Notes under the pieces: generated by a model
The model's input: the letters and a program-made list of their open reading frames with translations, nothing else
What the model was told of the DNA's origin: nothing
The model's database searches: none
Position numbers and translations under genes: made by a program
Source: an uncultured beta proteobacterium
GTDB lineage: Bacteria; Pseudomonadota; Gammaproteobacteria; Burkholderiales; Casimicrobiaceae
Direction of reading: 5' to 3'
Assembly: GCA_963749795.1 (NCBI GenBank)
Contig: CAVVOR010000001.1
Coordinates: 87,957 to 151,956 of the forward strand
Length of the DNA stretch: 64,000 nt
In this document: positions 1,302 to 62,954 of the stretch, in pieces
Position numbering within the stretch: position 1 is the first letter of the stretch
Layout: the number at the start of each line of letters is the position of its first letter

Positions 1302-2148
1302 CTAACGAGTTCGTGCACCCGCGGCCAGCGCGCGTGCTGGAGCATCGCCGACACCCGTTGCGAGCCATTTGAGCAACGGATCGGCGACCGTTTCCCAATC
1401 GCGTTCCAGCATCATCATGTGCGCAAGACCCGGCACGATGAGGGGGTCGATACCGTAGAGCAGCGCCGTGGCATTGACGTCGGAAGGCGTGGCAATGCGG
1501 TCGTCCTTCGCCCCCAGCACCATCAGCTTCGTGGCCGCAAACGGTTTGGGGTCACGCATGCGCAGCGTGAGGTCGAAGATGGCGCGCGGCGATTCCACAC
1601 CGAGATGTTCCATCGCTTCGGCGAGAATCGCCGGCGCCACCTTGTCGCTGAAATACATCGGACGCAGCGCCACCATGATGTCGCCCGCGAGATGCGGCGC
1701 ATCGAGCCTTTGCATGTTAACCAGATATTCCGGTTGCCACGCAAGCAGGCGTCCCGCGACCGGGCCAAGGCCGGCCGGGCGGAATGGGCGCCAACAGCGC
1801 GGCGGCGCGCACGGCCTGCATGGTGATCACCCGTTCGACGATCGTCGCGCCCATGGAATGACCAATCAGCACCGGCGCCGATGGCAGCTGAGCCATCACG
1901 TGACGCACATCGGCGACGTAGTCCTCGAGGCCGGCGACGAACAACGAATCATGGCCGCCGCTGGTGCCATGTCCGCGCAGGCTTAACGCGTAGGCGGGAT
2001 AGCCTCGTGCCGCGAAAAACGGCAGAAAATATGGTTCCCAGCACCAGGCGTCGCAATAGCCGCCGTGGACAAAAAGCAGCGGCGGCTTCGCCGTCGCTTT
2101 TGCCGGCAGCCTCGATCGTATTTCTATACTGGATTCGGGTGGGAGCAT
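1302..2148 (-). pseudogene. alpha/beta-fold hydrolase split by one extra base
   Basis: ORF 1717..2148 has the HGG motif and GHSMG nucleophile elbow. ORF 1302..1715 is the C-terminal half. They join as LAPIPP|AGLGPVAGRLLAWQPEYLVNMQRL if one G of the GGG run at 1777-1779 is dropped. Length is 1 mod 3. Confidence 0.75.
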
Positions 2149-2334
2149 CGTGGTGCTGGAGCCTTAAGGATCGCGTGCTAACATCGGCCCCTGTCACGAC
2201 GCGATGGATTTGATTGTCGGGCGCCTCGGGCCTTATTTGCGCCCGTCCCGCGACCGTCGGCAAGTAAGGCGCTGTTGCTGTAGCGGGCCAGCTGACCATT
2301 GCGGACCGCTCGACAGCCCAAACATTGATCTTAC

Positions 2335-3033
2335 ATGAGTCGCCAGTTGCCGCGTGGACCCGTTGCCATGGTCCCTGTCACCAACGCCTACGATCTGGAC
2401 TGCCGGCGTTGCGTTCGCCTGGCTGCCTTTCTTGATGATGTGCATGCGGCACACCCGTCGTACTTCTGCCGCCCGGTACCGCCGTTTGGAGACGCGAACG
2501 CGCGGCTGGTCATCGTCGGCCTCGCGCCCGGCATGCACGGCGCCAATGCGACAGGACGCCCGTTCACCGGGGACTATGCGGGGATCATTCTCTATGAAAC
2601 GCTGCACAAGTACGGTTTCGCCACCAAGGCGCAATCGACTGGTGTCGAGGATGGGCTCGAGCTCGTCGACGCGCGCATCACCAACGCGGTCAAATGTTTG
2701 CCGCCAGGAAACAAGCCTCTGCCCGCCGAAATCAGGACATGCAACGCCTTTCTCGCGCGCGAGCTCGCCGGAGTGCCGCCGGGCGCCGCAATCCTGGCGC
2801 TGGGACGCATTGCACACGACGCCACACTGCTTGCATTTGGGTTACCTTCGCGAGGCCACGCGTTTTCGCATGCGGGCGAGCACGCGTTGCCGCGTGGCGT
2901 CCGCCTGTTCGACAGCTATCATTGCAGCCGCTACAACACCAATACGCGACGACTGACTACGCCGATGTTCGAGCAGGTGTTCGCGTCGATTGTGCGGCAC
3001 CTCTCCGCACCAGCGACCGCAAAACTCGGGTGA
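2335..3033 (+). CDS. uracil-DNA glycosylase superfamily protein (family 4/5-like)
   Basis: VIVGLAPGMHGANATGRPFTGD motif and a C-terminal SYHCSRYNTNT motif. Stop lies 4 nt before the uvrC start. Confidence 0.75.
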   Translation: MSRQLPRGPVAMVPVTNAYDLDCRRCVRLAAFLDDVHAAHPSYFCRPVPPFGDANARLVIVGLAPGMHGANATGRPFTGDYAGIILYETLHKYGFATKAQSTGVEDGLELVDARITNAVKCLPPGNKPLPAEIRTCNAFLARELAGVPPGAAILALGRIAHDATLLAFGLPSRGHAFSHAGEHALPRGVRLFDSYHCSRYNTNTRRLTTPMFEQVFASIVRHLSAPATAKLG

Positions 3034-3037
3034 ACGA

Positions 3038-5020
3038 ATGACCATCCCCGAGAACGACGATCCCGCCGGCGTCACAGCAAAGCGAAGTCGCGATCGCGCT
3101 GCGGAGTCGCGGCCGCCGGCTGCGCGATTCGACGTCCGCGAATTGCTCGCTTCGCTGCCCAATCGGCCCGGGGTGTATCGGATGATCAGCGCATCCGGCG
3201 ATACCTTGTATGTCGGCAAGGCGCGCGACCTTAAGAAAAGGGTCTCAAGCTACTTCCAGAAAACCGATCACCATCCGCGTACCGCCTCGATGGTGGCTCA
3301 AGTCGCCGGCGTCGACACGACCGTCACGCGCTCAGAAGGCGAAGCGCTTCTGCTCGAGAATAACCTGATCAAGGCGCATCAGCCGCGTTACAACGTACTG
3401 TTTCGCGACGACAAGAGCTATCCGTACGTCTGTTTGACGGGCGAAACGTTTCCGCAGCTGCGATTCCATCGCGGCAAGCTGGAAAAACCGCATCGCTACT
3501 TCGGACCTTTCCCCAGCGCCGGTGCCGTACGCGAAGGGATGACGGTTCTGCAGAAAGTATTTCTTCTGCGCACCTGCGAGGCAAGCGTGTTCGCCAACCG
3601 CTCGCGACCCTGCATGCTGTATCAGATCCAGCGTTGTACCGCGCCTTGCGTCGGCCTGATTTCGGAGGCCGACTACCAGGAGGACGTTCGCAACGCGACG
3701 CTATTTCTGCAGGGCAAGACCGGCGAAGTATTGGCTGGATTGCAGCGGCAGATGGAAGAGGCTGCGGCGGCACTGGCATTCGAACGCGCGGCGGGACTGC
3801 GTGACAAGATCACGCGCTTGCAGCAGCTACAGTCCAGACAGTTCGTCGAGAGCGCGACCGCGGGCGACATCGACGTCGTTGCCGGCGTGGCGGAGCGGGG
3901 ACTGACAGCGGTGAACGTCGTCATGATCCGCGGTGGCAGGCACGTCGGCGACCGGACGTATTTTCCGCAACATGCGGAAGGCGTTGCCTTGGACGAGATC
4001 GTTCCTGCGTTCCTGTTGCAGCACTATCTGGATCGCGTGGTGCCGCCGGTGATTGTCGCAACGGCGCTGGCGACCGACGCCGCAGCAGAAGTCCCGAGCG
4101 AAGGTGCTGGTGAAGGTGCTGGTGAAGGTGCGAGCGGGGCCGACTTGCCCGAGACCATCGAATCGAGCGAGAGTGAAGTTCTCGCGGAAGTATTGTCGTC
4201 ACAATCGGGGCACAAGGTGCAACTGATCACCAGGCCGGGTGGCGAGCGGCGCGTGTGGGTCACGATGGCAATCCAGAATGCGGAATTCGCGATCCGACAG
4301 AAGCTCGCGCAAAAAGCGACGCAGGACGAGCGGCTTGCGGCATTGCAGGAAGCGCTTGGATTGCCCGCATCGGTGCAGCGCATCGAGTGCTTCGATGTCA
4401 GCCACACGATGGGCGAGTCTGCCGTCGCCAGTTGCGTCGTGTTCGATCGCCTCGCCATGCAGACGAGCGAATACCGGCGTTTCAACGTAAAGCCGGCCAC
4501 GGGAGGTGACGATTACGCAGCCATGCGCGAGGCGCTGACACGGCGAGTCGCCCGCATAGTCGCGGGAGAGTATCCTGCACCGGACTTGCTGGTCATCGAT
4601 GGTGGCAGAGGTCAGGTTGGCGTCGCCGCCGAAGTGTTGGCGGAGCAGGGTTTGCATGGGACGCAGCTAATCGGCATCGCCAAAGGGCCCGAGCGAAAAC
4701 CGGGAGAGGAAGAGATCATCTTTCCCGCGAGAGAAAAGGCCTTACAATTGTCGCCGGACCATCCGGGATTGCATTTGCTGCAGCAGATTCGGGACGAGGC
4801 GCACCGGTTTGCCATCCAAGGACATCGGGCGCGCCGCGCCAAGACCCGGAACACGTCGACGCTGGAGGCGATTGCCGGCATCGGTGCTCGTAAGCGACAG
4901 GCCTTGCTGGCTCACTTCGGTGGACTCAAGGGCGTGCAGGCGGCAAGCGTGGATGATCTGGCGCGCGTGCCGGGGATCAGCCGAGCGCTGGCAGATCGCA
5001 TTTTTACTGAATTGCATTAG
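3038..5020 (+). CDS. uvrC: excinuclease ABC subunit C
   Basis: GIY-YIG N-terminus (GVYRMISASGDTLYVGKARDLKKRVSSYF), UvrBC domain, C-terminal HhH (GIGARKRQALLAHFGGL). ATG at 3038 is preferred over the ORF-track start at 2990, which overlaps the UDG gene. Confidence 0.95.
   Translation: MTIPENDDPAGVTAKRSRDRAAESRPPAARFDVRELLASLPNRPGVYRMISASGDTLYVGKARDLKKRVSSYFQKTDHHPRTASMVAQVAGVDTTVTRSEGEALLLENNLIKAHQPRYNVLFRDDKSYPYVCLTGETFPQLRFHRGKLEKPHRYFGPFPSAGAVREGMTVLQKVFLLRTCEASVFANRSRPCMLYQIQRCTAPCVGLISEADYQEDVRNATLFLQGKTGEVLAGLQRQMEEAAAALAFERAAGLRDKITRLQQLQSRQFVESATAGDIDVVAGVAERGLTAVNVVMIRGGRHVGDRTYFPQHAEGVALDEIVPAFLLQHYLDRVVPPVIVATALATDAAAEVPSEGAGEGAGEGASGADLPETIESSESEVLAEVLSSQSGHKVQLITRPGGERRVWVTMAIQNAEFAIRQKLAQKATQDERLAALQEALGLPASVQRIECFDVSHTMGESAVASCVVFDRLAMQTSEYRRFNVKPATGGDDYAAMREALTRRVARIVAGEYPAPDLLVIDGGRGQVGVAAEVLAEQGLHGTQLIGIAKGPERKPGEEEIIFPAREKALQLSPDHPGLHLLQQIRDEAHRFAIQGHRARRAKTRNTSTLEAIAGIGARKRQALLAHFGGLKGVQAASVDDLARVPGISRALADRIFTELH
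4100..4132 (+). repeat. 12-nt in-frame tandem repeat (GAAGGTGCTGGT x2.7) encoding EGAG EGAG EGA inside uvrC
   Basis: Read directly: gaaggtgctggt gaaggtgctggt gaaggtgcg. Confidence 0.9.
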
Positions 5021-5094
5021 CACGATCTCCGACCGGAGCGCATGACCCAATCCACCGTGTCGTCGAATCAGAAAGTTCCTGCGTCGTCCAACTC

Positions 5095-5682
5095 ATGCTG
5101 TTCAATGTTCCCACCGCGCTCACCTGGCTCCGGATCATTCTGATTCCGGTGTTCGTCGGCGTTTACTATTTACCTAACGCGTGGATGTCGTTGCCGCACA
5201 AGAACTGGCTGGCGATGAGCGTGTTCGCTCTGGCCGCGATTACCGATTGGGCCGATGGATATCTCGCACGCAAATTGGGACAGACCTCGGCGTTCGGCGC
5301 GTTCCTCGATCCGGTCGCCGACAAGCTGATGGTCGCGGCGGCGCTGATCCTGCTGGTCTGGCTCGATCGCGCGGAGGCCTGGCTCGCCATCATCATCATC
5401 GGTCGTGAGATCGCGATATCGGCGCTGCGCGAGTGGATGGCGCAGCTTGGTCAATCGAAGAGTGTCGCGGTGGCATTCATCGGCAAGGTCAAGACTGGCG
5501 CGCAAATCACCGCCATCATTGCCTTGCTGCTGTTCCAGCCGGTGATTCCGGGTATCAACACCGTGTGGCTCGGCACGACGGCATTGTGGGTCGCGGCGAT
5601 TCTGACGCTGTGGTCGATGTTCCACTATCTACGCATCGCCGCGCCCCATTTTCGCGCCAAGCCCAAGCGCGATCCTTTCTGA
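5095..5682 (+). CDS. pgsA: CDP-diacylglycerol--glycerol-3-phosphate 3-phosphatidyltransferase
   Basis: CDP-alcohol phosphatidyltransferase motif DWADGYLARKLGQTSAFGAFLDPVADKL. Conserved uvrC-pgsA-tRNA neighbourhood. Confidence 0.9.
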   Translation: MLFNVPTALTWLRIILIPVFVGVYYLPNAWMSLPHKNWLAMSVFALAAITDWADGYLARKLGQTSAFGAFLDPVADKLMVAAALILLVWLDRAEAWLAIIIIGREIAISALREWMAQLGQSKSVAVAFIGKVKTGAQITAIIALLLFQPVIPGINTVWLGTTALWVAAILTLWSMFHYLRIAAPHFRAKPKRDPF

Positions 5683-5744
5683 TCGGGCCGCACGTCGTTG
5701 CGGCGGTGAAAGGGTTGTCCGGTGTTGGCGCAGCCGGCAGCGAA

Positions 5745-5774
5745 TTGACCCGGGTATGGTCGAGCGACTATAAT
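5745..5774 (+). promoter_or_regulatory. sigma70-type promoter for tRNA-Asn
   Basis: TTGACC (5745-5750), 18-nt spacer, TATAAT (5769-5774), 10 nt before the mature tRNA 5' end. Confidence 0.6.
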
Positions 5775-5784
5775 GTTCGGCTGT

Positions 5785-5860
5785 TCCCTGATAGCTCAGT
5801 TGGTAGAGCGACGGACTGTTAATCCGCAGGTCCCTGGTTCGAGCCCAGGTCGGGGAGCCA
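5785..5860 (+). tRNA. tRNA-Asn (anticodon GTT)
   Basis: 76-nt cloverleaf folded by hand. Acceptor TCCCTGA/TCGGGGA, D arm GCTC..GAGC, anticodon loop CTGTTAA, T arm CCTGG TTCGAGC CCAGG, encoded CCA. Close to my recollection of E. coli tRNA-Asn. Confidence 0.93.
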
Positions 5861-5868
5861 AGCTACAT

Positions 5869-5900
5869 GCGGCCCGCAGCGATGCGGGCCGTTTCTTTTT
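5869..5900 (+). terminator. rho-independent terminator after tRNA-Asn
   Basis: GCGGCCCGCA gcga TGCGGGCCGT stem followed by TTCTTTTT. Confidence 0.7.
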
Positions 5901-6051
5901 GCTCCGCAATTCTGGCTTTGCTCCGCAAAAATGTGGATAACCTGATCAGCGCGATCGATTGCTGAGGCAATACAGTCCTGGGCCAGCGGCACACATTTGG
6001 TGTGGCAGATGCGTAGATTCGCGCCGCGCCTCCGCACCTGAATATCATACT

Positions 6052-6118
6052 AAACAGTTATTTTTGAACTGTTTCTTTCAAAATACCGTAGGACCCCGTG
6101 GACGACCACGTAGCTCCG
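6052..6118 (+). other. orphan TetR-family 5' end (about 17 codons) preceded by an operator-like palindrome
   Basis: AAACAGTT-N7-AACTGTTT palindrome at 6052-6074. Then ..FQNTVGPRGRPRSS.. parallels the start of the intact TetR gene at 7337 (..IQNTARPRGRPRSF..), with mostly synonymous codon differences. Similarity stops after about 6118. Confidence 0.45.
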
Positions 6119-6213
6119 GCAATCTCCCGCTGATTCACCGCGATCAGGTCAGCCGCGATCGGGCCTTTCTTCAGGACACCGCTCTCAAGGTGCTGCGGAA
6201 GACGACGAATTTT

Positions 6214-7221
6214 CTATGTCAATCCGACGGGCCGTTTTGGCATCAGCGGACCCGCATGAGACGCGGGTCTGACAGGCGATAAATTGACGCCGGAGACATT
6301 GACGACGGCCTGCCACGCGGCTTCCTGGTTGGCGCCATCGAGGAGATGTGGTTGGAGTTGCACTTCCATCGGGCCTGAGAACTTCCCTTGAGCCGAGGCG
6401 AAGAATTGCCCTGATACGTCGGTTCCGAACTCCGACGCCTGGAGGTAGCGACGGGCCGCGGTCTCCGGCGCCTGATTCATGCCGGGAATGCGGTTCACGA
6501 TTGGAATCATCAGATACTTCAACAACGGGCCAGCATTTCGCGCCACATTGGTGGCGTTCGACGCACCGGGCGATACGGCGTACACGGCCATGCCGGAGGG
6601 CAGCCGGCGGGCCAGCGCCGCGGCCCACCAAGCGACAATGAGCTTCGCGTCGGCATACGCATTGTTGGGCGCGTACTTCACGTGCGGCCCGTTGCGAATC
6701 AGGGCTTCAACAGCGGCGGTTTGGTCACCCCGGAAGTATTTAGCCGCGAAGGCGAACGCGTCGGTGTACTTGAACATGGGCACGCCCCCGCGGGCAGGCT
6801 CCGCGCTGGTGATAACGATCCGCGCGTTGGGGCTCAGCAGGTTGGCGCGAAGCAACCCGACAGTCAGTTGATGGTGGCCGATCAGCGGGGCTTGAGAAGC
6901 CTCGATGCCCGCCGCAGTGAGCACACGATTCTTGCCTGGAACCATCCCTGCATTGAGCAGCAGGAAATCGATCGGCTGACCCCGCTTGACCAGTTCGGCG
7001 AGTGCGGACTGAACGCTGGACGACGAGTCCAGATCCAACTCCAACGGCGTGAAGATTTTTTTCTTGATCTCAGCCGCGAGTTGAGCAGCCGTATGCTGGA
7101 CCGCGCCAAGCCTGCGTCCGGTGACGATGACCTGTTTATAGCCCTTGGCGGCGAGCAAGCCGGCTGCCGCATAACCGAGCCCGGATGTGGCGCCGGTGAT
7201 GAGGGCGATTGAATGTTCCAT
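6214..7221 (-). CDS. SDR-family oxidoreductase
   Basis: N-terminal ALITGATSGLGYAAAGLLA Rossmann motif. Divergent from the TetR gene. Confidence 0.85.
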   Translation of the reverse strand: MEHSIALITGATSGLGYAAAGLLAAKGYKQVIVTGRRLGAVQHTAAQLAAEIKKKIFTPLELDLDSSSSVQSALAELVKRGQPIDFLLLNAGMVPGKNRVLTAAGIEASQAPLIGHHQLTVGLLRANLLSPNARIVITSAEPARGGVPMFKYTDAFAFAAKYFRGDQTAAVEALIRNGPHVKYAPNNAYADAKLIVAWWAAALARRLPSGMAVYAVSPGASNATNVARNAGPLLKYLMIPIVNRIPGMNQAPETAARRYLQASEFGTDVSGQFFASAQGKFSGPMEVQLQPHLLDGANQEAAWQAVVNVSGVNLSPVRPASHAGPLMPKRPVGLT

Positions 7222-7336
7222 GGGGGCTCCGTGGTGAAAGGGGGTCGAGTCGTGAGGCCCCCGCGAGGCGAGGGCCGGCTTGCTATTTTCGAACTATTCA
7301 GTTATATATTGGTGCGGTGACCATTGTCAATGAATT
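7222..7336. promoter_or_regulatory. divergent promoter/operator region between the SDR and TetR genes
   Basis: A/T-rich 115-bp spacer with short inverted repeats (AACTattcAGTT at 7292-7303; TTGAAccaaatgaTTCAA across the TetR start). No experimental support. Confidence 0.35.
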
Positions 7337-7960
7337 TTGAACCAAATGATTCAAAATACCGCTAGGCCGCGGGGTCGACCGCGCAGCTTCGACGAGACGG
7401 GGGCGCTGGACAAGGCGACTCAGGTGTTCTGGTCGAAAGGCTACGACGGAGTGACGATCGACGATCTCGTCGCCGGGATGGGCGTAGGACGGCCGAGCCT
7501 GTATGCCGTCTTCGGGGACAAGCGGGCGATATTCTTGCGCGTCCTTATGGCGTACGCGGAACGGAAGGGCGCATTAGCCGCGAAGGCACTCCTCGCACCT
7601 CAGACTATTCGCGACGCGATCGCGGACTTTCTGAGGTACGCCGTCGAAAGTGCGACCCAGAAAGGGTCCGCCCGGGGCTGCCTCATGATGTGCGTCGCGC
7701 CGCTTGTGAATGACGCTGAGGTTCAGCGGTTCCTGCAGCGCGCCGTCGCGGGCGGCGTGGCGCTGGTGGAGCGCCGTTTCCGGGACGGGATCAGCGCGGG
7801 AGAAATCCCGCCTGACTTTCCGGTGGCCGTGCGCGCGGTCCAAGTCACAGATTTTGCTCGTGCCTTGACCATGCGTGCGCAGATAGGCACGCCGCGCAAG
7901 ACGCTCCTCAAAGAGGCAGAGGAAGCAACCGACTTGGTGCTTCAGCCGCGGCGCGTCTGA
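7337..7960 (+). CDS. TetR/AcrR-family transcriptional regulator
   Basis: HTH region LDKATQVFWSKGYDGVTIDDLVAGMGVGRPSLYAVFGDK. Confidence 0.9.
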   Translation: MNQMIQNTARPRGRPRSFDETGALDKATQVFWSKGYDGVTIDDLVAGMGVGRPSLYAVFGDKRAIFLRVLMAYAERKGALAAKALLAPQTIRDAIADFLRYAVESATQKGSARGCLMMCVAPLVNDAEVQRFLQRAVAGGVALVERRFRDGISAGEIPPDFPVAVRAVQVTDFARALTMRAQIGTPRKTLLKEAEEATDLVLQPRRV

Positions 7961-8219
7961 CGGGTTATCGGAAACAATTCACTGAGAAATGACCATGACA
8001 ACTGACATGAGCGGGCGACCTGGAGCATTTCGCAAGTCCGGCCATGGTTTCTATGCGTACGGCTGACTTGGTTTTGGACGCAAGGCCGTGTTGTCGACGC
8101 GTCGCTCTGATTCGACGCGTCAGTCCACTCCCAATCGCGTACGTGCATTTGCCGGCGTGAGCGCCGGTCGGCCTGCCATCTTAATGGAAAGTGGCGCACG
8201 CCACGACTTTCCCGATTTG

Positions 8220-9185
8220 CTATTGCGCCTTGATCCCCGCGGCCTTGATGACCTTCGCCGAATCCTCGATTTCCGCCTGCACGAACTTGTGGAACTCGGC
8301 TGGGGTCATCGGCATCGGTTCGGCACCCAGCGTCGCGAGCCGCTCCTTGACGTCGGGCGCCTGCGCCGCCCGGTCGATGTCCTTGTTGATCTTGTCGACG
8401 ATGTCCGGCGGCGTTCCGGCCGGCGCGAACACGCCGACCCACAGGTTGTAGTCGAATCCCGGCAACGCCGCCTCGGCGATCGTCGGTACGTTGGGCAATG
8501 CGCTCGACCGCTTGGCCGTACTCACCCCCAGCGCGATCAGCTTGCCTTCGCGCACGTTGGGTAACGCCGCCGAGATCGGTGAAAAGAAAAACGTGACGCG
8601 GCCGGCCAGCGTGTCGTTAAGCGCCTCGGGCGTGCCTTTGTAGGGGATGTGCACGACGTCGATGCCGGCCGCGAGCTTGAATTTCTCCGCGTTGATATGC
8701 GTGCCGCTGCCGGTGCCGGCGGATCCGAAGTTAAGTTGCCCGGGTTTTTGCTTGGCCAGCGCGATCAGCTCCGCGACGGACTTGACCCCGGTGGCTGGCG
8801 CGACGATGAGCACGTTGGGTTGCCCGGCGAGAGGTGCAATCTCGGCGAAATCCTTGGACGTGTCGTAGGAAAGCGTCGGGTAGATCGACGCGTTGTAAGC
8901 CTGCGCAGCGGAGTTCACCAGCAGCGTGTAGCCGTCGGGCGGGGATTTCGCCACCACCGCGGCGCCGATCGTGCCCCCGGCCCCCGGGCGGTTCTCGACG
9001 ATCACCGACTGGCCCCACATCTCCGACAATTTCTGACCAAAGGTGCGCGCCAGGATGTCGGTGGCGCTACCCGCGGTGAACGGAACGATGAGACGCACGG
9101 TCTTGTTCGGATAACCCTGTCCCGTCGCCAACGGCACGCAACAAAGCGCAATCGCGATGCCGGCAATCCAGCGCCCGAGTTTCAT
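8220..9185 (-). CDS. Bug/TctC-family tripartite tricarboxylate transporter substrate-binding protein
   Basis: Signal peptide, then YPNKTVRLIVPFTAGSATD.., the characteristic Bug-family N-terminus. About 320 aa. Confidence 0.9.
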   Translation of the reverse strand: MKLGRWIAGIAIALCCVPLATGQGYPNKTVRLIVPFTAGSATDILARTFGQKLSEMWGQSVIVENRPGAGGTIGAAVVAKSPPDGYTLLVNSAAQAYNASIYPTLSYDTSKDFAEIAPLAGQPNVLIVAPATGVKSVAELIALAKQKPGQLNFGSAGTGSGTHINAEKFKLAAGIDVVHIPYKGTPEALNDTLAGRVTFFFSPISAALPNVREGKLIALGVSTAKRSSALPNVPTIAEAALPGFDYNLWVGVFAPAGTPPDIVDKINKDIDRAAQAPDVKERLATLGAEPMPMTPAEFHKFVQAEIEDSAKVIKAAGIKAQ

Positions 9186-9206
9186 GTCGATCTCCTTACG
9201 CTACGC

Positions 9207-10124
9207 TCACGTGAGCCCATCGCCGACAGGCACGTTCTCAGGCTCGAGCTGCAGGCCTGACGCCTCCGCCTGCAGCACGAGCAACTTGGCGAAATCCTCT
9301 TCCGTCACCCCATGGCCGATCAGGCTCTGCACGGTGTCGCGGGTGATCGACGCCAGTGGCATCGGCACGCCGAACCTGCGCCCGGCATCGAGTCCGAGGT
9401 CGAGGTCCTTGCGCAGCAGATACGGGGTGAACGTCACCTTGAAATCAAGATTGACGAACGCGGGTGTCTTGTAGCGCGAGAATGTCGATCCCATCACGCT
9501 CTGGTTCATGAATTCGAGGAACGCGTGCCGCGGCACGCCCGCCTTCTGCGCCAGCACCGTGATCTCGGCCAGCGACTGGGTGACGACGCCGAGGAACACG
9601 TTGTGGCAGATCTTCACGATGCGCGCGAGCTCGCCCTCGCCAACGTAACTTGCGGACGGCGCAATCATCCTGAGGCAGGGAAGCGCCGCATCGAACGCAG
9701 ACTTCGGTCCCGAGCACACGAACGACAAACGGCCGGCCTTGATCACCTTGGCGTTGCCCGACACTGGCGCGGCCAGCAACTCGATGGCGCGCGCCTTGAG
9801 CAACGCGCGCAACTCGGCCGAGCCTTCGAGCGAAATCGACGAGCACTCCACGATCATCCGCGGCTTGCCCGCACCGGACAGCAGGCCGGAGGGACCCAGC
9901 ACGACTTCCTTCACGTCGTCCCAAGTCGACACCATGCAAAAGACGATGTCGCAGGCAGCAAGGTCCGTCAGCTTGTCCGCGACCTTTGCGCCGTAAGCCG
10001 TCAACGGCTCGGCCTTGCTGCGCGTGCGATTCCAGACGGTAACGTCCGCGCCGCTCTTGGCAAGCCTGGCCGCCATTTCGTAACCCATGCGGCCGATTCC
10101 GATCCAGCCGATTCGCTCCTTCAC
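9207..10124 (-). CDS. NAD(P)-dependent oxidoreductase, 3-hydroxyisobutyrate dehydrogenase family
   Basis: IGWIGIGRMGYEMAARL dinucleotide fold and the family-typical length. Confidence 0.85.
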   Translation of the reverse strand: MKERIGWIGIGRMGYEMAARLAKSGADVTVWNRTRSKAEPLTAYGAKVADKLTDLAACDIVFCMVSTWDDVKEVVLGPSGLLSGAGKPRMIVECSSISLEGSAELRALLKARAIELLAAPVSGNAKVIKAGRLSFVCSGPKSAFDAALPCLRMIAPSASYVGEGELARIVKICHNVFLGVVTQSLAEITVLAQKAGVPRHAFLEFMNQSVMGSTFSRYKTPAFVNLDFKVTFTPYLLRKDLDLGLDAGRRFGVPMPLASITRDTVQSLIGHGVTEEDFAKLLVLQAEASGLQLEPENVPVGDGLT

Positions 10125-10160
10125 GCATTCACTCCTTCACTCATTCACGCTTTCACTGCC

Positions 10161-11468
10161 CTAATACGGATTCGCGATCGGCAATTCTTCCGCCGGATAC
10201 AGCGAGATGATCTTCGGCCCGATCGGCGTGAGGATGACCTCCTCCTCGATGCGTGCCGCTGAAATACCATCGCTCGCGGGGCAGTAGGTCTCGACTGCGA
10301 ACACCATGCCAACCTTGAGCTCGATCGGCTCCTTCAACGAGTTCAGTCGAGAGATCAGCGGCCGCTCGTGCAATCCGAGCCCGAGGCCATGGCAGAAGTT
10401 GAGCCCGAACGCATCCATCTCGCTGGCGAAGCCGATGTCCTTGGCCTTGGGCAGCGAGCGTGCGATCTTGTCCGAGACTCACGCCCGGTTTCAGCAGGTC
10501 GATGGTGCGATCCATCCACTCGCGCGCCTTGCGGTACGCGGTTCGCTGTGACGATGTCGCGCGGCCGACGTTGAACGTGCGGTAGTAGCACGTGCGGTAG
10601 CCCATGAACGACTGGATGATGTCGAAGAACGCCTGATCGCCCGGGCGAATCAGCCGGTCGGTGAAGTTGTGCGGATGCGGGCTGCAGCGCTCGCCGGAAA
10701 TCGAGTTGATCGCCTCGACGCAATCGGAGCCCATGCCGTACAGACGTCCCGTGGCGAGCGCGACGATCTCGCTCTCCTTGACGCCGGGCTTCAGCGCTTC
10801 CGCGATGTCCTGATAAACGCCGTCGACCATCGCCGCGGCCATGTTGAGCAGCGTGAGTTCGTCGATGTTCTTCACTTCGCGCGCCTGCAGCAGCGTTTGC
10901 TGACCATCGCGCACTTCGATGCCCAGCTTTCTGCAATTCGAACAGCATCGGCGGCTCGACGACATCGAGGCCCAGCGGCATCTTGCCGACCCCTTCCGCG
11001 TCGAGGATCGATTTGATTTCGCGCGCCGCGTCGCGAAACAGCGCGATGTCGCCACCGACAGCGCCGCGCAATCCCAGCAATCCCGCGCGGCAATGGTCGT
11101 GATGCAGCCACGGTGCATGCAGGCGATGGTGCCTGCGCCGCCGAGCCGAAATCCCAGATGTACGGGTCGCCATTGCCGGTCAGCAGCGAATAGCGCGTCA
11201 GCTTGTCGCGCGCCCATTCGCCGATGACGGTGCTGGTCATGTAACGGATGTTGTGCTGGTCGAAGCACAGCAGCGCGCCGAGACCCGAATTCGCCAGCGC
11301 GGCACGCGTTCGCGCGAGGCGATAGTCGTGCAGGCGGCGAAAATTGACGCGCTCCTCGAAGTCGACCTGCGTGTGCCCGGGCGCCTGCAGTGGACGATCC
11401 CACTTGTAGTGCGGATCGATGTCGTCGGGCCGGATGATCTTCGGCTCGCTCGTTTTTTTCTTCGCCAT
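10161..11468 (-). pseudogene. M24-family metallopeptidase (creatinase / Xaa-Pro peptidase / DddP-like) with at least 3 frameshifts
   Basis: Coding signal hops between three frames. N-terminal part (MAKKKTSEPK..IWDFGSAA) to about 11135. Middle (..HHRLHAPWL..MLFELQK) to about 10940. Catalytic part (GIEVRDGQQTLLQAREVKN..DLLKPGV) to about 10485. C-terminus (..DAFGLNFCHGLGLGLHERP..). Confidence 0.8.
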
Positions 11469-11490
11469 GGTGTGTAGTCTGCTTGTTGAC

Positions 11491-12498
11491 TCAGCGTTTG
11501 CCGTACGCTTTTTCGTAGTACGAAAGATCGACATATTTCATCGGGTCGGCGAGTGTCTTCTGCGGCAGGCCGTACTTGCTGCGCAATTCGAGCACCGTGC
11601 GGATGCCCGAAATATCGAGCGCGACATCGCGCGTCACGCCGCCTTTGTCGGCAAGCAGCAGGTCATAGGATTGCTTCGCCAGCGCTGGCGTCATGTCGCG
11701 GATGTTGGCTACCAGGAGCGTTTCGACGATTTCGCGATTGGCACGGTCGTAGATCCAGTCGACGCCGGCGCGGTAACCGCGCATGAACCCGATCAGCGCA
11801 GCCTCATTGGCCTTGGCCCAAGAGCGTCGCGCCGCGCCAACCGTACCTTCATATGCGCCGAGCGATTCGGCAACCGCGAGTTGATTGAAGCCGCGATTCT
11901 TGGCCAGCAGCTCGAAAGGAGTCCGCAGCAGCGTGGCGTCGTGCTTGCCGTCGAGCAGTTCGCGATAGCGATTGGAGGTCCCGCCGGCACGCACGTACTT
12001 GACATCGGCTTCCGCCAGTCCGTTGCGCGCGAGCAGTTCGCGCACGACAAATGCATAACCGGTTGTCATCGCGTCGACCGACACGGTCTTGCCTTTGAGA
12101 TCGGCGAAATTCTTCACCGTCGGCGCACTGACCACCGAGGCAAAGCCGCTGTCATTGCCGATGAATGCGAACAGGTCGGGATTGTCAGCTATCTTGGCCT
12201 CGCCTTGCCCTTCCTGATAAGCAACGACGTTGTCGATTCCTGCAAGGCCGATGTCGAACATTCCGTCGAGCAAGCGGGTGATGAGATACACCGAACTCGG
12301 CGTGTACGAGAGCTGGACTGTAACGCCTTGCGCTTCGAAGAAGCCCTGTCGCTGCGCCGCCCAGACAGGCAGGTTCCAGCCGCCGTCGAAGGCGATGACC
12401 CGCAGCGGCGTCGGTATCGCCGGCGGCGGCGCCTGCGCGTCGACCCCGGACGCCGAAATCCATGCTGCCAGCGCAAACGCCATGACGCCAAAACGCAT
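11491..12498 (-). CDS. ABC-transporter substrate-binding protein, NMT1/THI5 (SsuA-like) family
   Basis: Signal peptide MRFGVMAFALAAWISASGVDAQA, then LRVIAFDGGWNLPVWAAQRQGFFEAQGV.. typical of the family. Confidence 0.8.
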   Translation of the reverse strand: MRFGVMAFALAAWISASGVDAQAPPPAIPTPLRVIAFDGGWNLPVWAAQRQGFFEAQGVTVQLSYTPSSVYLITRLLDGMFDIGLAGIDNVVAYQEGQGEAKIADNPDLFAFIGNDSGFASVVSAPTVKNFADLKGKTVSVDAMTTGYAFVVRELLARNGLAEADVKYVRAGGTSNRYRELLDGKHDATLLRTPFELLAKNRGFNQLAVAESLGAYEGTVGAARRSWAKANEAALIGFMRGYRAGVDWIYDRANREIVETLLVANIRDMTPALAKQSYDLLLADKGGVTRDVALDISGIRTVLELRSKYGLPQKTLADPMKYVDLSYYEKAYGKR

Positions 12499-12593
12499 GA
12501 TTCGCCTCCTCCGACGCTCCGCTCGGCCGCTATCCGGGGGCGGACTGGCAGAAGGATTGCATCATATCCGCATCCGAGGCTCGCGCACGCCCA

Positions 12594-12636
12594 TTAATCC
12601 GCAGGTCCCTGGTCCGAGCCCCGGGTCGGGGAGCCA
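12594..12636 (+). repeat. degenerate copy of the tRNA-Asn 3' half (att-like scar)
   Basis: TTAATCCGCAGGTCCCTGGTcCGAGCCCcgGGTCGGGGAGCCA versus tRNA positions 5819-5860. One substitution, plus one substitution with an inserted base. Identity starts inside the anticodon loop. Confidence 0.8.
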
Positions 12637-12972
12637 ATTCATTCACTACGTTAGGTCAGTTCTGAAGGACGGACTTGTTGCGGAACGTCCGCAATCCAAA
12701 TCTGCTATCGATTCGACCGCGCGCGCTCATCATGGGCGCCGACTTTGTCGTTCCGTAGTCGCTTTCGGCCAGAAGCTGTCGCGACAAGCGTTCTCCGGTA
12801 GAGTGCGAAAAGCAGTACCTCGAGCGGCTCCATAGTGTCGGGAGAACCCGGGGCGATATCAAAGAAACTAGGGATCGGTTAAATATCCTGTATCTATTCC
12901 GCCACGATCACCTTATCCTTGTCCAGTAAGGCTGCTGCGCGGCCAGCCCAAATAAAATAGGAGGAAAACAAC

Positions 12973-14299
12973 GTGTCCAATCGTGCAATTTCTCGTCGTA
13001 AGCTGCTGAAGGCATCGGCCGCGGCCGGTGTGCTCGGATTGGTGGGCCTGCCCGCTTTTGCGGAGCCGCAATGGAAGAAATACGCCGGTACGAAACTCGA
13101 GGTGCTCCTCATCAAGGGTCCGCGCGGCGATAATCTGGAGAAAAACATGAAAGAGTTCACCGACCTGATTGGCATACAGGTCGAGTCCGAGCAAGTGCCC
13201 GAGCAGCAGCAACGCCAGAAGGCTGTGATCGAACTCTCGTCCGGCAAGCCGAGCTTCGACGTCGTCCACCTGAGCTATCACGTTCAGAAGCGCCAGTTCG
13301 AAAGGGCCGGATGGCTCGCCGACCTCTCGGGATTCATGAAGGACCCGAACCTCACGGCGCCAGATCTCGTCGAAAGCGATTTTTCGGCCGCAGGTCTTTC
13401 CTATGCCAAGAACGACAAGGGGCAGTTGCTTTCGCTGCCGTGGTCGGTCGACTACTTCATCCTCTACTACAACAAGGAAATCTTCCAGAAGAAGGGTGTT
13501 GCAATACCAAAGAACTTTGACGAGATGATAGCGACCGCCGACAAGTTGACAGACCCCGCGTCAGGCACCTTCGGCTTTGTCGGGCGCGGCCTCCGCAACG
13601 CCAACATGACGCTTTGGTCCAACTTCTACCTCAATTACGGTGGCGAATTCCTGGACGCCAAGGGCAATATCTTGACGGACGGTCCTGAGGCAGTTGAAGC
13701 GACCAAGATGTATCAGCGCCTGATGAAGGATGCTCCTCCTGGCGTGGCCGGATTCAACTGGATGGAATCCATGGCGGCCTTTACCCAAGGGGCGAGCGGC
13801 GATGTGGATCGACGGCGTCGGCTGGGCCCCGCCGGTGGAGGATCCGGCCGCCTCGCGCGTCGTCGGCAAGGTCGGCTACACGATGGTTCCTGCCGGACCG
13901 AAGGGCCGTTTCTCGGCGACCTACGGCGACGGCATCGGCATCGCGCAGACGAGCAAGAACAAGGAAGCCGCCTTCCTGCTTTGCCAATGGGCCGTATCGA
14001 AGCAGCAGGGCGCACGCCTTCTGCAATCTGGCGGCGGGGTTCCATTTCGTAACTCCGTGCTCAACGACCCGGAAGTTCGCAAAGGCGTCAAGTTACCGCA
14101 GGAGTGGCTGCAATCTGTCATCGACGCATCGAAGATCAGCAAACTCGGTCTGCCGGTCATCATCCCGGTGGCCGAGTTCCGCGACATTGTCGGTGCCGGT
14201 GTCACAGCGACGCTGTGGGGCGCTGATCCCGCAGTAGAACTCAAAAAGGCGCACGAGCAGTTCCGGCCAATTCTCGAGCGATCCGAGAAGGCGTCGTAA
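12973..14299 (+). pseudogene. sugar-type ABC transporter substrate-binding protein (family 1), one extra base
   Basis: AGGAGG RBS, GTG start, Tat-like signal SRRKLLKASAAAGVLG. Frame breaks at the GGGG run 13789-13792 (expected ..FTQGRAAMWIDG..). Length is 1 mod 3. Confidence 0.8.
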
Positions 14300-14366
14300 C
14301 AATCGCCTTGTCACTGCGCCTTTCCTGCTCCGGAATATTTCCGGAGCAGGATTACCGCTTCCAGAG

Positions 14367-15293
14367 TTGACCATGTGCGAGCAAAGCATCGAAGCCGACG
14401 CAGGTTTCAAGCAGAAGTATTGGCTACGCTCCTATTGGCCATTCGTGATCCCGGCGCTGGTTGTGGTCCTCGGCGTGATCATCTTCCCTTGGCTCTTTAC
14501 CATCTGGATGAGCCTGAACGAATGGAAGGTCGGCTCGCCGACGGTCTTCGTTGGCCTCGCCAATTACCTGCGTCTACCGAACGATCCGCGCTTCATCGAA
14601 GCAACTTGGCACACGATGGCGTATACCTTCCTGTCGGTGCTGCTGCCACTTGTATTGGGCACGTTCGCCGCGGTCGTTTTCGACAAGAAATTTCCGCTGC
14701 GCGGTTTCCTGCGCGGATTGTTCATCATGCAAATGAAGGCAACACCGGTAGCCATCGCGTTGGTGTGGACCATGATGTTCAATCCGCAACTTGGCGTGCT
14801 GAACTATCTACTCTCGCTGGTGGGCCTGCCGGCGCAGCTCTGGGTATTCCACCCCGGCACCGTAATCCCGTCGCTGGTCATGGTCGAGACGTGGCAATGG
14901 ACGCCTCTCGTGATGCTGATCGTGCTTGGCGGGCTCGCCGCGATACCGGCCGAGCCTTATGAGAACGCGCGGATTGATGGGGCGAGCTTCTGGCAGATGT
15001 TTCGCTACATCACGCTGCCGCTGATCACGCCATTCCTGTTCATCGCTGCGATGATCCGCATGATCGACGCGGTGAAGAGCTTCGACATTATTTTTGCCAT
15101 TACGCAGGGCGGCCCGGGAACGGCCTCCGAAACTATCAATCTCTATCTGTACAGCGTCGCTTTCGTCTACTACGACATAGGGTACGGCTCGGCGATCGCG
15201 CTTGTGTTCTTCGTGCTTATCGTCGTGCTTGCCGCCATATTGCTCTATCTGCGGCAGCGCATGCACTGGAGCGAGGCCGGAGCTAACGCATGA
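14367..15293 (+). CDS. ABC transporter permease (MalF/UgpA-like)
   Basis: Six hydrophobic spans and an EAA-type loop (YENARIDGASFWQMFRYITLPL). Confidence 0.85.
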   Translation: MTMCEQSIEADAGFKQKYWLRSYWPFVIPALVVVLGVIIFPWLFTIWMSLNEWKVGSPTVFVGLANYLRLPNDPRFIEATWHTMAYTFLSVLLPLVLGTFAAVVFDKKFPLRGFLRGLFIMQMKATPVAIALVWTMMFNPQLGVLNYLLSLVGLPAQLWVFHPGTVIPSLVMVETWQWTPLVMLIVLGGLAAIPAEPYENARIDGASFWQMFRYITLPLITPFLFIAAMIRMIDAVKSFDIIFAITQGGPGTASETINLYLYSVAFVYYDIGYGSAIALVFFVLIVVLAAILLYLRQRMHWSEAGANA

Positions 15294-16104: not shown

Positions 16105-16257
16105 CCCGTCAGCCGAGGGCGCGAATTGGTATCCAACTCCCGTTCCGCAAAATTGAGGGCTATCGGTATCTTCGGGGCACCAACGCGCGGAAACCCGCGC
16201 AAATTGCGGAACGGAATTTCGCCTAAGCTAACGGAAAGTGCGCGAATCCGCGGAGGC

Positions 16258-16299
16258 CTGTTAATCCGCAGGTCCTAGGTTCGAGCCTTGGTCGCTAGC
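16258..16299 (+). repeat. divergent copy of a tRNA-Asn 3' half (att-like scar)
   Basis: CTGTTAATCCGCAGGTCC is identical to the tRNA. It is followed by a different but still pairable T arm (CTAGG TTCGAGC CTTGG) and a different acceptor strand (TCGCTAG), with no CCA. Confidence 0.75.
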
Positions 16300-22376: not shown

Positions 22377-22464
22377 GGCACTCGTCTCCCGTGCTCTCAG
22401 CGTACGGCGGATGAAGGCACTTCGTGGATTCCCTGCTTGCGCCGCATGATCACGATGGCTTCCT

Positions 22465-53887: not shown

Positions 53888-55673
53888 ATGAAAACCACCG
53901 CCAATGACCCCATATCTGCTCCGCTTGGCTCGGTGGAGGACATGCGGGGTGTTTTACGTCGCCGAGGCAAGCTCAAAGGGCGCCAGCCGGATCATGTTTC
54001 GGTGGAGGAAGTTCAGCTGCTGATCGGTGCCGGCCCGCATCCGCGCGATTTGCTCATTGAATACCTCCATCGACTGAACGACACGTGGCGCGGACTTCGC
54101 GATCGCCATCTGGTGGCTCTCGCGCGCGAGATGAACGTACCGATTGCCGAGGTCTTCGAGGTCGCGACTTTCTATCACCACTTCGAAGTGCTGCGCGGAG
54201 ATGCTCTTGCACCCGGTCTCACGGTGCGTGTCTGCGACGGACTGTCGTGCGAATTGGCGGGCGCCAAAGGATTACTGGAGCGGCTGCCCGCGTTGCTGGG
54301 CAAGGATGTTCGCGTCATTCCCGCGCCTTGCGTCGGTCGCTGCGAGCAGGCGCCGGTAGCGGTCATCGATCAGTACCCGGTGCTTCGGGCGAACGTCTCC
54401 GATGTCCAGACTGGGGTCGAGCAGCAGATCACGCGGCACCCGTTACCGGATGACCGCGCGCAGTTCGATCCGGCGTCAGCGGGCGTGGGCGCCGTAGGCT
54501 CTCCCAGCGATGTTGCCCCCGCGTACGTCGGCTACGACGCCTATCGAGCGCGCGGCGGCTATCGTTTGGCATCTGCGGTGGCCTCGGGCGAAATTGCTGT
54601 CGACGACGTCCTGAAAGCAATGACCGATTCGGGGCTGCGCGGCCTTGGCGGCGCCGGCTTTCCAGCCGGCCGCAAATGGGGCATCGTCCGGCAGTACATG
54701 GCACCACGACTGATGGCGGTCAATATCGACGAAGGTGAACCCGGGACCTTCAAGGATCGAACCTACCTTGAGCGCGATCCTCATCGGTTCCTCGAAGGTT
54801 TGCTGATTGCTGCCACCGTCGTCGGGATCGAGAGCTGTTACATGTACCTGCGCGATGAATATCATGGCTGCCGCGCGATCCTGGAGCGCGAATTACAACG
54901 CTTGCAAGCCGATCCGCCGTTCGTGCTCCCTCGCATCGTGCTGCGGCGTGGAGCCGGCGCCTACATATGCGGCGAAGAATCCGCGATGATCGAAAGCATC
55001 GAAGGCAAGCGCGGAGAGCCGCGCATGCGCCCCCCCTACATCGCCGAGATTGGCCTGTTCGGCCGGCCCACGCTCGAGCACAACTTCGAGACCCTTTACT
55101 GGGTTCGAGACATCGTCACGCGCGGCGCTGCATGGTTCAGCGGTTTCGGCCGCAACGGGCGCAAGGGCTTGCGCTCGTTCAGCGTCAGTGGCCGCGTAAA
55201 GGACCCCGGCGTCAAGCTGGCCCCGGCAGGTATTACGTTGCGCGAACTGATCGACGAGTATTGTGGTGGCATGTTGCCCGGCCACGATCTCTACGCGTAC
55301 CTGCCGGGAGGGGCATCGGGTGGCATCCTTCCGGCGACGATGAGCGATATCCCGCTCGACTTCGACACGCTGCAGCCGCATGGCTGTTTCATCGGTTCTG
55401 CCGCAGTGATCGTGCTCAGCCAGCACGACACCGCGCGCGATGCCGCCATCAACATGATGCGTTTCTTCGAACATGAAAGTTGCGGCCAGTGCACCCCGTG
55501 CCGTGTCGGGACCGGCAAAGCGGCAAGCTTGATGATGCGCCGAGCATTGGGACCATGAGACGCTCGAGGATTTGAACCAAGTCATGATTGACGCATCGAT
55601 CTGCGGGCTCGGTCAGGCGGCGCCGAATCCCGTGCGTTGCGTACAGAAATATTTCCCCCACGAGGTGGCCTGA
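53888..55673 (+). CDS. NAD-dependent formate dehydrogenase beta subunit, NuoE-like + NuoF-like fusion (one extra base near the 3' end)
   Basis: NuoE-like 2Fe-2S domain (..VCDGLSCELAG..PCVGRCEQAP..), NuoF-like GLRGLGGAGFPAGRKW and ESCGQCTPCR. Frame breaks at 55540-55541. The downstream frame reads HWDHETLEDLNQVMIDASICGLGQAAPNPV.. to the TGA at 55671-55673. Length is 1 mod 3. Confidence 0.85.
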
Positions 55674-58534: not shown

Positions 58535-58545
58535 ATCGGTTAGGC

Positions 58546-60452: not shown

Positions 60453-60528
60453 GGCAAATGGTGTCGCGTAGATAGGGATCAACTGTCTGGCAGAAGTGAA
60501 TCGATGAACTCGATCGTGGACGGATAAA

Positions 60529-62085
60529 ATGGCTCAAGACCAAACTGAGCGAAGCGGCCCCGATCTGACTCAGGGGATTGCGTTCAACGAGCTCGTCGCC
60601 GTCGGCAAACTGGTCGGTTATGTCGGCGACGAAGAGGTCCTCCTGGTGTGTCGCGGGACCGAGGTGTTCGCCGTGGGCGCCCATTGCACTCACTACCACG
60701 CGCCGCTCGTCGACGGCTTGGTCGTTGGCGATACCGTCCGCTGTCCGTGGCACCACGCTTGTTTCGACCTGCGCACGGGCGATGCGATACGCGCCCCGGC
60801 CTTGAGCCCTATTGCTTGCTGGTCGGTCGAGCAACACGACGGCAAATCTTCGTGCGAAAGAAACGCCAAGAGGCGGCTCCGGTCCCGCGCAGTGGCCCTT
60901 CCCGCAAAGGTCCCGAAAAAATTGTGATTGTCGGCGGCGGTGCAGCCGGTTTTGCCGCGGCCGAGAAGCTCCGGCGTGAGCAATATCAAGGCAGCATCGT
61001 CATGCTGAGCGATGACGATGCTGCGCCGGTCGACCGCCCAAATTTGTCCAAGGACTTTCTCGCCGGCAATGCGCCGGAGGATTGGGTTCCTCTTCGGCCG
61101 GAGAGCTTTTATGTCGAACAGGACATCGACCTCCGCCTCAAGGCGAACGTCACCGGCATCGACGTGAGATCGCGCGAAGTCGGACTCGCCGATGGAAGCA
61201 AAGTGCCTTACGACCGGCTGCTGCTCGCAACCGGCGCTGAACCCGTGAAGTTGTCGATCCCGGGAGCCGACCAGCGACACGTATTCACACTGCGCTCGCT
61301 CGGCGATTGTCGGGCGATCATCGAGCGCGCGAATGACGGCTCGACGTGTTGTCGTGCTCGGGGCCAGCTTTATCGGGCTCGAGGTCGCCGCCGCTTTGCG
61401 CGCTCGCAATCTTGAAGTCCATGTTATCGCTCCGGAAAAACGGCCGATGGAACGCATCCTGGGTGCGCAAATGGGCGACTTCGTTCGTTCACTTCACGAG
61501 GAGCACGGGGTCGTCTTCCATCTGGAGGACACAGCGACCGCCCTCGATGGTGAGCAAGTCAAGCTCAAAGGTGGCGGCACCATTGAAGCGGACCTCGTCG
61601 TCGTCGGCGTCGGTGTGCGTCCTCGCATCCAGATTGCCGAGAAGGCAGGCCTCGGCATTGATCGCGGCGTCAGCGTGAACGCCTATCTCGAAACAAGCGT
61701 GCCTGAGATCTACGCGGCAGGAGACATCGCGCGCTGGCCCGATCCTCACAGCGGTGAGTCCATTCGCGTCGAGCATTGGGTCGTTGCCGAGCGCCAGGGG
61801 CAAGCGGCGGCAATCAACATGCTCGGGAGCCGCGAAAAATTCGCCGACGTCCCTTTTTTCTGGAGTCAGCACTACGACGTCCAGATCAACTATGTCGGCC
61901 ACGCCGAAAAATGGGACGAACTCACGATCGAGGGCGACATCCCTGGCAAAGACTGCCTGCTTCGCTTCAAGCTCGGTCAGCGCACGCTCGCAGTGGCCTC
62001 TATCTTCCGTGACTTGGAAAGCCTACAGGCCGAAGTGACCATGGAGCAGGACGCAGTGGACCGTCAAGCAGCGTCGGGGAAATAA
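60529..62085 (+). pseudogene. Rieske [2Fe-2S] domain fused to an FAD/NAD(P) ferredoxin-reductase-like oxidoreductase, two compensating indels
   Basis: Rieske CTHYHAPL..CPWHHACF. FAD fold KIVIVGGGAAGFAAA. NAD fold RRVVVLGASFIGLEVAA. Breaks at the AAA run 60844-60846 (one A missing) and at GG 61338-61339 (one G extra). Confidence 0.75.
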
Positions 62086-62140
62086 CCTCCCGCAAGCAGG
62101 TCCGATATCGTGCTCGGGACGCGCAAAGCAGCCTCCACGG

Positions 62141-62954
62141 TCAAGGCCTCACGGTCACGCGCAGGAATGTCGCGGGAATGGCGGTCATGTCGTCGCGCGA
62201 ACTCTTGTTCTGTGCTTTGAATAGATCCTCCAGTTGCCTCTGCAGATCCGCAACGCGCCCGTTCTTTTCTGCCGCTTCGAAGGCATTCATGGTCGGCCCG
62301 TAGTAGCTCTTGAACTGTGCCGACAAACTCCGCGGGCGCGCCAGGATAGTTGAAGGTAAAGGTGTCGCGCGCGAAGGATATTTTCTCGGCTGGAATTCCG
62401 GCAGCGACAAAGCGCTCGGTGGCACTGTTCTCGACGCCCCAGGTCATCGGACTGATGAAACCCTCCGGTGGCGGCGGCGTGAACGCAGAGCTGATCTTCA
62501 GGATCTGCGCGACCAGCGTCGGATCGTTGGGGATCCAGTTGCCCATGATGATGCGCCCCCCGGGCCGGGTGACGCGGACCATTTCTTTCGCCACATCGAA
62601 CGGCTTGGGTGCGAACATCGCACCGAAGATGCTTACGAGCAAGTCGAAGCTCCGATCCTGCACGCCTTGCATGTCGGAGGCGTCACCTTCCTCAAACCTG
62701 CAATTGGAGAGACCCAGCGCCTTGGCGCGCTTGTTGCCCGCGGCGACGAGATTGGCTGCGATGTCGACCCCCAGGACGTCGGCGCCGCGTTGCGCTTCAG
62801 GGATAGCGGTGGTTCCGTCACCGCATCCGAGATCCAGCACCTTGAGGCCTTTGGTGATGCCCAACGTCTCGACGAACGCTTCCCCGCTTTCGCGCATGGT
62901 GTCCGCGATGCACGTGAAGTCGCCTTTTTCCCATAGTGCTTTGTTTGGATTCAT
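62141..62954 (-). pseudogene. class I SAM-dependent methyltransferase, one extra base
   Basis: VLDLGCGDGT motif. Start MNPNKALWEKGDF at 62954. Frame break near 62320-62321. C-terminus (..QFKSYYGPTMNAFEAA..) is in ORF 62141..62425. Length is 1 mod 3. Confidence 0.7.

Follow-up and report, generated by a model that had tools for sequence, protein, structure and literature searches.

Frameshifted genes in a Casimicrobiaceae metagenome-assembled genome as probable consensus errors of a few-contig assembly

Broken genes of the window

We analyzed a 64,000-nucleotide stretch of DNA, referred to below as the window, from a metagenome-assembled genome (MAG) of an uncultured Casimicrobiaceae bacterium, in which conserved genes are split by small insertions and deletions (indels). 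The MAG (G000) comprises 3.94 Mb in 10 contigs with 62% GC, a completeness of 90% and a contamination of 1.2%, and the window lies at G000:C1:87957-151956. Its close protein relatives bear names from the Burkholderiales, among them Casimicrobiaceae and Caldimonas. The genes concerned were aligned to orthologues from relatives of the same genus with a purpose-written protein-to-DNA aligner that tolerates frameshifts, and to two sister contigs of the same species whose assemblies we located via exact-protein look-ups. One of these, contig_253434_np1212 of ERZ26871208 (loci L062, L064, and L065), spans window positions 18,864-48,777 at 96.8-98.2% identity; the other, contig_62284 of ERZ25039552 (locus L063), spans positions 1-12,593 and 20,764-23,100 at ∼97-98% identity. 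The broken genes and their lesions are as follows.

1302-2148, minus strand: alpha/beta hydrolase; one extra base at 1777 (G on the plus strand), frame 0 to +1
10164-11537, minus strand: M24 peptidase; three 1-base insertions at ∼10476, 10928, and 11136
12973-14299, plus strand: sugar ABC solute-binding protein (SBP); one extra base at ∼13792-13795
15290-16104, plus strand: ABC permease 2; scrambled central stretch of ∼50 amino acids, at least 3 indels between ∼15609 and 15714
19163-20583, plus strand: AraC-like regulator; 8 single-base indels (6 missing, 2 extra), adjoining a strain-variable breakpoint at ∼20764
23629-25585, minus strand: cNMP-binding/DUF924/1-Cys peroxiredoxin fusion (cNMP-DUF924-Prx); one extra base at 25542-25544, within a CTCGAG that adjoins a G5 run
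25697-26660, minus strand: Bug/TctC receptor; ∼9 indel events, mostly missing bases (25734-25883, 26543-26583)
26670-28173, minus strand: acyl-CoA synthetase; six 1-base indels (27937, 27935, 27838, 27324, 27259, 27222) and a 3-base deletion
33462-35682, minus strand: paoC-like molybdopterin aldehyde oxidoreductase subunit; one extra base at 34994
43914-44619, minus strand: tupB-like permease; one extra T (coding strand) at 44533
46577-46907, minus strand: kaiB; complex net +1 within 46879-46887, ATG at 46907 overlapping the kaiC stop (ATGA)
46904-48410, minus strand: kaiC; 2-base deletion at 46933, open reading frame (ORF) reading through to 46740
53888-55673, plus strand: formate dehydrogenase (FDH) beta, a NuoE-like and NuoF-like fusion; one extra base within 55536-55547
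60529-62085, plus strand: Rieske and FAD-dependent pyridine nucleotide-disulfide oxidoreductase (Rieske-FAD reductase); compensating pair, -1 at ∼60848 and +1 at ∼61335
62141-62954, minus strand: class I SAM methyltransferase (MTase); one extra base at ∼62316-62320

Comparators for the SBP, permease 2, FDH beta, Rieske-FAD reductase, and MTase were at genus level only. An earlier reading of the letters alone (the sequence-only reading) had singled out nine genes as one base too long: those for the hydrolase, SBP, cNMP-DUF924-Prx, acyl-CoA synthetase, paoC, tupB, kaiB, FDH beta, and MTase. We confirmed this for all nine, whose start-to-stop lengths are 1 mod 3 and whose translations each move from frame 0 to frame +1. 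Nine of nine shifts being +1 has a probability of ∼0.002 if both directions were equally frequent (50:50), and it agrees with the genome-wide insertion bias described below. In frameshift-aware alignments to genus orthologues, exactly one 1-base insertion was required in the hydrolase, SBP, cNMP-DUF924-Prx, tupB, and FDH beta. The acyl-CoA synthetase, with its six 1-base indels and 3-base deletion, is not a gene of one lesion. The MTase showed one frame switch in a Viterbi path, and alignment to its sole available orthologue, which is from the relative G007 and is itself frameshifted at other sites, asked for three insertions.

The positions proposed for the breaks proved right within a few bases (1777, ∼13792-13795, 25542-25544, 34994, 55536-55547, ∼61335, and ∼62316-62320), and base-level alignment to same-species copies showed the extra base of the window at 1777, 25542, 34994, and 44533. 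The break that had been placed at 61338-61339 is accounted for by the +1 in the Rieske-FAD reductase gene, which in addition carries the compensating -1. In three genes, Pfam profiles run on across the junction: SBP_bac_1 matches the SBP with profile positions 9-228 and then 230-306, split over two frames, NADH_4Fe-4S is divided likewise in FDH beta (positions 1-34, then 44-82), and Pyr_redox_2 matches the Rieske-FAD reductase with positions 2-139 and 143-291 in different frames. The N-terminal pieces of the hydrolase and the MTase match Abhydrolase_6 and Methyltransf_11/25, respectively. When read through, FDH beta can be aligned with homologues of ∼576-621 amino acids across 97-100% of its length; a protein search gave no same-species intact copy of it, the best other match being 85% identical.

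For kaiB, the predicted net +1 was found, but as a complex lesion rather than a single added base. Its partner kaiC, suspected of the same fault, is indeed broken, but by the 2-base deletion and not by one extra base. In its own frame kaiB lacks a start codon; the overlap of its ATG with the kaiC stop reads ATGA, compared with TTGA in G007 and ATGA in L065. Genes for a HisKA_3 histidine kinase and a LuxR-type response regulator come after the kaiC-kaiB pair (45023-48410), and this KaiBC-type module sits in a non-cyanobacterial (Burkholderiales) MAG.

Intact copies were present in same-species assemblies at 97-98% nucleotide identity for the hydrolase (281 amino acids, L063), cNMP-DUF924-Prx (651 amino acids, L064; also intact in G007), paoC (739 amino acids, L062 and one Logan contig), tupB (234 amino acids, L062), kaiB (109 amino acids, L065), the acyl-CoA synthetase (502 amino acids, L062), and the AraC-like regulator (475 amino acids, L064). 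Compared with these copies, codons with synonymous and nonsynonymous changes stand at 23:2 in paoC and 16:1 in tupB, and the genes are therefore under purifying selection. As a separate observation, the cNMP-DUF924-Prx fusion is 94% identical in DNA to G007:C7:789236-791210, while most other compared genes of the two genomes are at ∼65-73%; such similarity would imply unusual conservation or transfer.

The sequence-only reading had set apart a class of genuinely decayed genes with several lesions, a distinction that our comparisons do not uphold. The AraC-like gene has only 15 substitutions in 470 codons relative to the 98% identical L064 copy, set against its 8 indels, and the Bug gene, whose product matches the TctC profile, has only 4 substitutions relative to L062, set against ∼9 indel events. 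These indels are too many relative to the substitutions and thus are the opposite of neutral decay. The acyl-CoA synthetase had been said to contain an in-frame stop that indel errors could not produce. However, this TAA (27900-27898) lies inside an out-of-frame stretch bounded by the deletions at 27937/27935 and 27838, in which another frame encodes the same peptide as the intact copy. Since the TAA sits between compensating deletions, the apparent in-frame stop was made by indels. The M24 peptidase retains 96% amino acid identity to the orthologue in the relative G005, held in all four frame segments. We note that its insertion at 10476 (GTGAGT[C]TCGGAC) is common to the window and L063 (∼15416, ERZ25039552); every other lesion that could be tested occurs in one assembly only.

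Window positions 12594-20763 (sugar ABC transporter, Kelch protein, and AraC-like gene) are missing from L063, and L064 has 2.2 kb extra at the right edge (∼20764-20770). The segment is therefore a strain-variable island, with the densest lesion clusters in and beside it. The AraC cluster at the breakpoint near 20,764 may point to a poor consensus where coverage was low or strains were mixed. L063 has its own cluster of ∼49 single-base insertions, accompanied by an elevated number of mismatches, in genes that the window carries intact.

An integrase with in-frame stops, also reported from the letters, was not found: PF00589 had no match within the window, and the pieces at ∼16,264-16,994 (minus strand), whose look had suggested an integrase, gave neither a Pfam nor a PHROGs match. 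A 335-amino-acid ORF adjoining tRNA-Asn was considered as an integrase and rejected, as it is an intact SDR that is 98% identical to its G005 counterpart. The SDR and TetR module (6171-7974), which adjoins tRNA-Asn (5785-5860), has 96% DNA identity to G005 and 89% to G007 compared with ∼72-77% for flanking genes, which suggests recent horizontal exchange at the tRNA-Asn site. Copies of the tRNA-Asn flank recur in G005.

Genome-wide extent, sequence context, and relatives

A 40-kb region around rpoBC and the ribosomal operons was set against its syntenic counterpart in G005 (81-86% DNA identity). Both rpoB (+1 at C4:172924) and rpoC (+1 at C4:167242) are split into two frames, yet each is 93-94% identical in amino acids to G005. 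No organism could live with both genes split.

The whole genome was scanned with a codon-usage Viterbi model of six coding frames and a non-coding state, in which a frameshift candidate is a same-strand frame switch with the old frame open for at least 24 bases beyond the switch. This gave 1,059 candidate junctions, or 2.7 per 10 kb, 752 of them insertion-type versus 307 deletion-type. Calibrated in the window, all nine calls were true, real gene boundaries were excluded, and 6 of the 15 broken genes were missed, so that the genome total is a lower bound. Junction counts per 10-kb bin were over-dispersed, with a variance/mean ratio of 2.6. The sequence-only reading had noted that lesions are not uniformly spread; the unevenness is real, but as a genome-wide trait of the error process it does not speak for biology.

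Isolated events were nearly all insertions, and clusters were rich in missing bases. The claim that the extra bases are G or C in G/C runs did not hold, as they include G, C, T (as in tupB), and A; by hand tally, ∼15 of the ∼27 base-resolved ones are G or C, in a genome of 62% GC. About half, by hand tally from the same-species alignments, extend an identical neighbor, which we estimate to be near the chance level. Across 516 insertion-type junctions, the longest homopolymer within 25 bases was no longer than at control coding positions, and the junction surroundings showed only a slight enrichment of GC/CG-rich sequence (GC/CGCG). A methylation-motif cause, prompted by TCGA, CTCGAG, and GAGTC near several sites, was rejected: GAGTC, GANTC, CTCGAG, GATC, and CCWGG were not enriched genome-wide, and TCGA was marginal (p = 0.01-0.07).

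Relatives were sampled as random 20-kb regions. Six many-contig genomes of the same genus yielded 9 candidates in 160 kb (3 insertion-type, 6 deletion-type; 0.56 per 10 kb), compared with 42 candidates in 160 kb, 31 of them insertion-type, in the few-contig genomes G008, G011, G013, and G017. Overall, four of five few-contig relatives had insertion-dominated densities of 2.0-3.75 per 10 kb. On balance, the frameshift signal follows assembly type, not lineage. Several genomes of the genus with 4-10 contigs nevertheless have a completeness of only 73-88%. The FDH locus of G007 (L002, G007:C4:1055293-1062135) contains ∼8 frameshift-like junctions in 6.8 kb versus almost none in random G007 regions, which illustrates the strong clustering of errors in these assemblies.

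RNA genes of G000 showed irregularities as well. Two rRNA operon regions, C9:318517-324461 and C10:42894-48835, share only 95.8% identity; between them are 71 gap openings, which include ∼9 isolated single-base indels and several GGTGG-rich divergent blocks; assembly error, intervening sequences, or mixed populations are possible causes. ARAGORN predicted long tRNA-Ala genes of 95 nt (C5:1238041-1238135) and 89 nt (C9:290288-290376) and a 78-nt tRNA-Arg(ACG) at C6:84400-84477 with its anticodon one position late. These odd tRNA genes may be further indel errors.

Consensus error versus biological explanations

Taken together, these data indicate that the frameshifts most probably arose as consensus errors in a long-read metagenome assembly of few contigs and are not mutations of the organism, a reading to which we assign a probability of about 0.88. 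It is favored because the errors are genome-wide, essential genes are broken, the signal tracks assembly type, intact copies exist in the same species, the broken genes are under purifying selection, and L063 has an error cluster of its own. The assembly-artefact interpretation already offered for genes with a single lesion is thus strongly supported. Two modes of error would account for the lesions: sporadic single-base insertions, about one per few kb, in ordinary, non-homopolymeric, slightly GC/CG-rich sequence, would produce the genes that are one base too long, and local clusters of many indels, mostly missing bases and at times with extra mismatches, would produce the multi-lesion genes. 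The clusters may reflect low or strain-mixed coverage near strain-variable segments. The contig names of the sister assemblies, which are Flye-style, make Nanopore the probable platform, and the organism most likely carries intact copies of all these genes.

Under a different explanation, single-hit genes are artefacts and the multi-lesion genes (AraC-like, Bug/TctC, acyl-CoA synthetase, permease 2, and perhaps M24) are true strain pseudogenes in or beside an accessory island. The lesion clusters do roughly match gene boundaries (Bug and acyl-CoA synthetase at 25.7-28.2 kb, AraC at 19.1-20.2 kb), the segment that L063 lacks is accessory DNA, the acyl-CoA synthetase has a divergence of 3.3% and a synonymous:nonsynonymous ratio of 22:28, as against 23:2 in paoC, and the M24 insertion at 10476 recurs in a second assembly. 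However, neutral decay would leave far more substitutions than indels, the reverse of what the AraC-like and Bug genes show, L063 has a similar cluster, raised mismatches included, in genes that are unbroken in the window, over-dispersion is genome-wide, and the M24 coding sequence keeps its identity to G005 across its frame segments. We therefore consider this division of the lesions improbable. Massive recent pseudogenisation, as in recently host-restricted bacteria, would make all or most frameshifts real and would fit the many broken genes and a completeness of 90% despite only 10 contigs. It is scarcely credible given that rpoB and rpoC are among the broken genes, that most of the few-contig assemblies sampled in the genus show the insertion-type signature, which many-contig ones show far less often, that the same-species sister assemblies have these genes intact and different lesions elsewhere, and that the broken genes are under strong purifying selection. 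Equally hard to credit is biological decoding, that is, programmed +1 ribosomal frameshifting, quadruplet decoding, or transcriptional slippage, by which the genes would be functional as written. The isolated events are strikingly one-directional (+1), as such decoding would have it, but no common shift site exists, since the context differs at every base-resolved site, and neither homopolymers nor motifs are enriched. Moreover, the 47 tRNAs predicted by ARAGORN have 3-base anticodons only, one continuous frame suffices for orthologues and same-species copies alike, and the distance to the downstream 0-frame stop is tens to hundreds of bases, unlike at prfB-type sites.

The case for consensus error is indirect, and several observations weigh against it. 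An insertion bias without homopolymer association differs from the classic Nanopore pattern (PMC9262707). In the random regions, few-contig G007 had only 0.25 candidates per 10 kb and G005, with 30 contigs, had 2.0; contig number is an imperfect proxy for assembly type. Junction density within G000 is uneven, at ∼1.1-1.2 per 10 kb in C1 and C3 versus 2.6-3.4 elsewhere, and 0.6 in the rpoBC/ribosomal region. The sister assemblies are different strains (2-3% divergence), and intact copies there are no strict proof for this strain. The divergence of the acyl-CoA synthetase is raised (3.3%), with a synonymous:nonsynonymous ratio of 22:28 that would fit relaxed selection; the comparable L063 cluster likewise shows raised mismatches, in genes intact in the window. 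Finally, the shared M24 insertion at 10476 could be a systematic error that recurs from assembly to assembly or a genuine mutation. There is a small chance that a minority of the lesions is real, namely the M24 insertion and/or those of the lesion-dense AraC, Bug, and acyl-CoA synthetase genes around the strain-variable island; recent strain-level gene inactivation would then be hidden among assembly errors.

Consensus errors on this scale would matter for users of the genome, which is a species representative: annotation may split or truncate at least a quarter of its genes, with pseudogene counts inflated, completeness estimates lowered, and metabolic reconstruction misled. The systems affected include formate dehydrogenase, the tungstate transporter, KaiBC, and the aldehyde oxidoreductase. 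Several few-contig MAGs of the genus share the problem, and frameshift-aware annotation or re-polishing is needed before gene-loss claims are made.

Comparison with known systems

The window shares the +1 direction of its shifts with prfB-type programmed frameshifting but differs from it in that no conserved shifty codon or adjacent stop is present and the orthologues are not frameshifted. Like the pseudogene-rich genomes of host-restricted bacteria such as Mycobacterium leprae and Sodalis, G000 has a large fraction of frameshifted genes. In genomes of that type, essential genes remain intact, and pseudogenes gain substitutions and show relaxed dN/dS; here, in contrast, rpoB and rpoC are broken and the broken genes are under strong purifying selection. 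The published Nanopore indel problem leans to deletions. It is also centered on homopolymers, unlike the isolated errors described here, which are mainly insertions and have no homopolymer association.

That consensus indels cause frameshifts in Nanopore assemblies is well documented, as is the influence of coverage on the quality of assemblies built from Nanopore reads only (PMC9262707). Indel-induced frameshifts in long-read assemblies are likewise the subject of the proovframe preprint (bioRxiv 10.1101/2021.08.23.457338), and one large Nanopore-only soil MAG study used one round of Medaka polishing (PMC12313526). As with the Nanopore and PacBio frameshifts addressed by the IDEEL test and proovframe, the single-base indels of the window split conserved genes, recur genome-wide, and go with lowered marker completeness. 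They also resemble long-read artefacts in their distribution, since few-contig long-read MAGs contain them and short-read MAGs seldom do.

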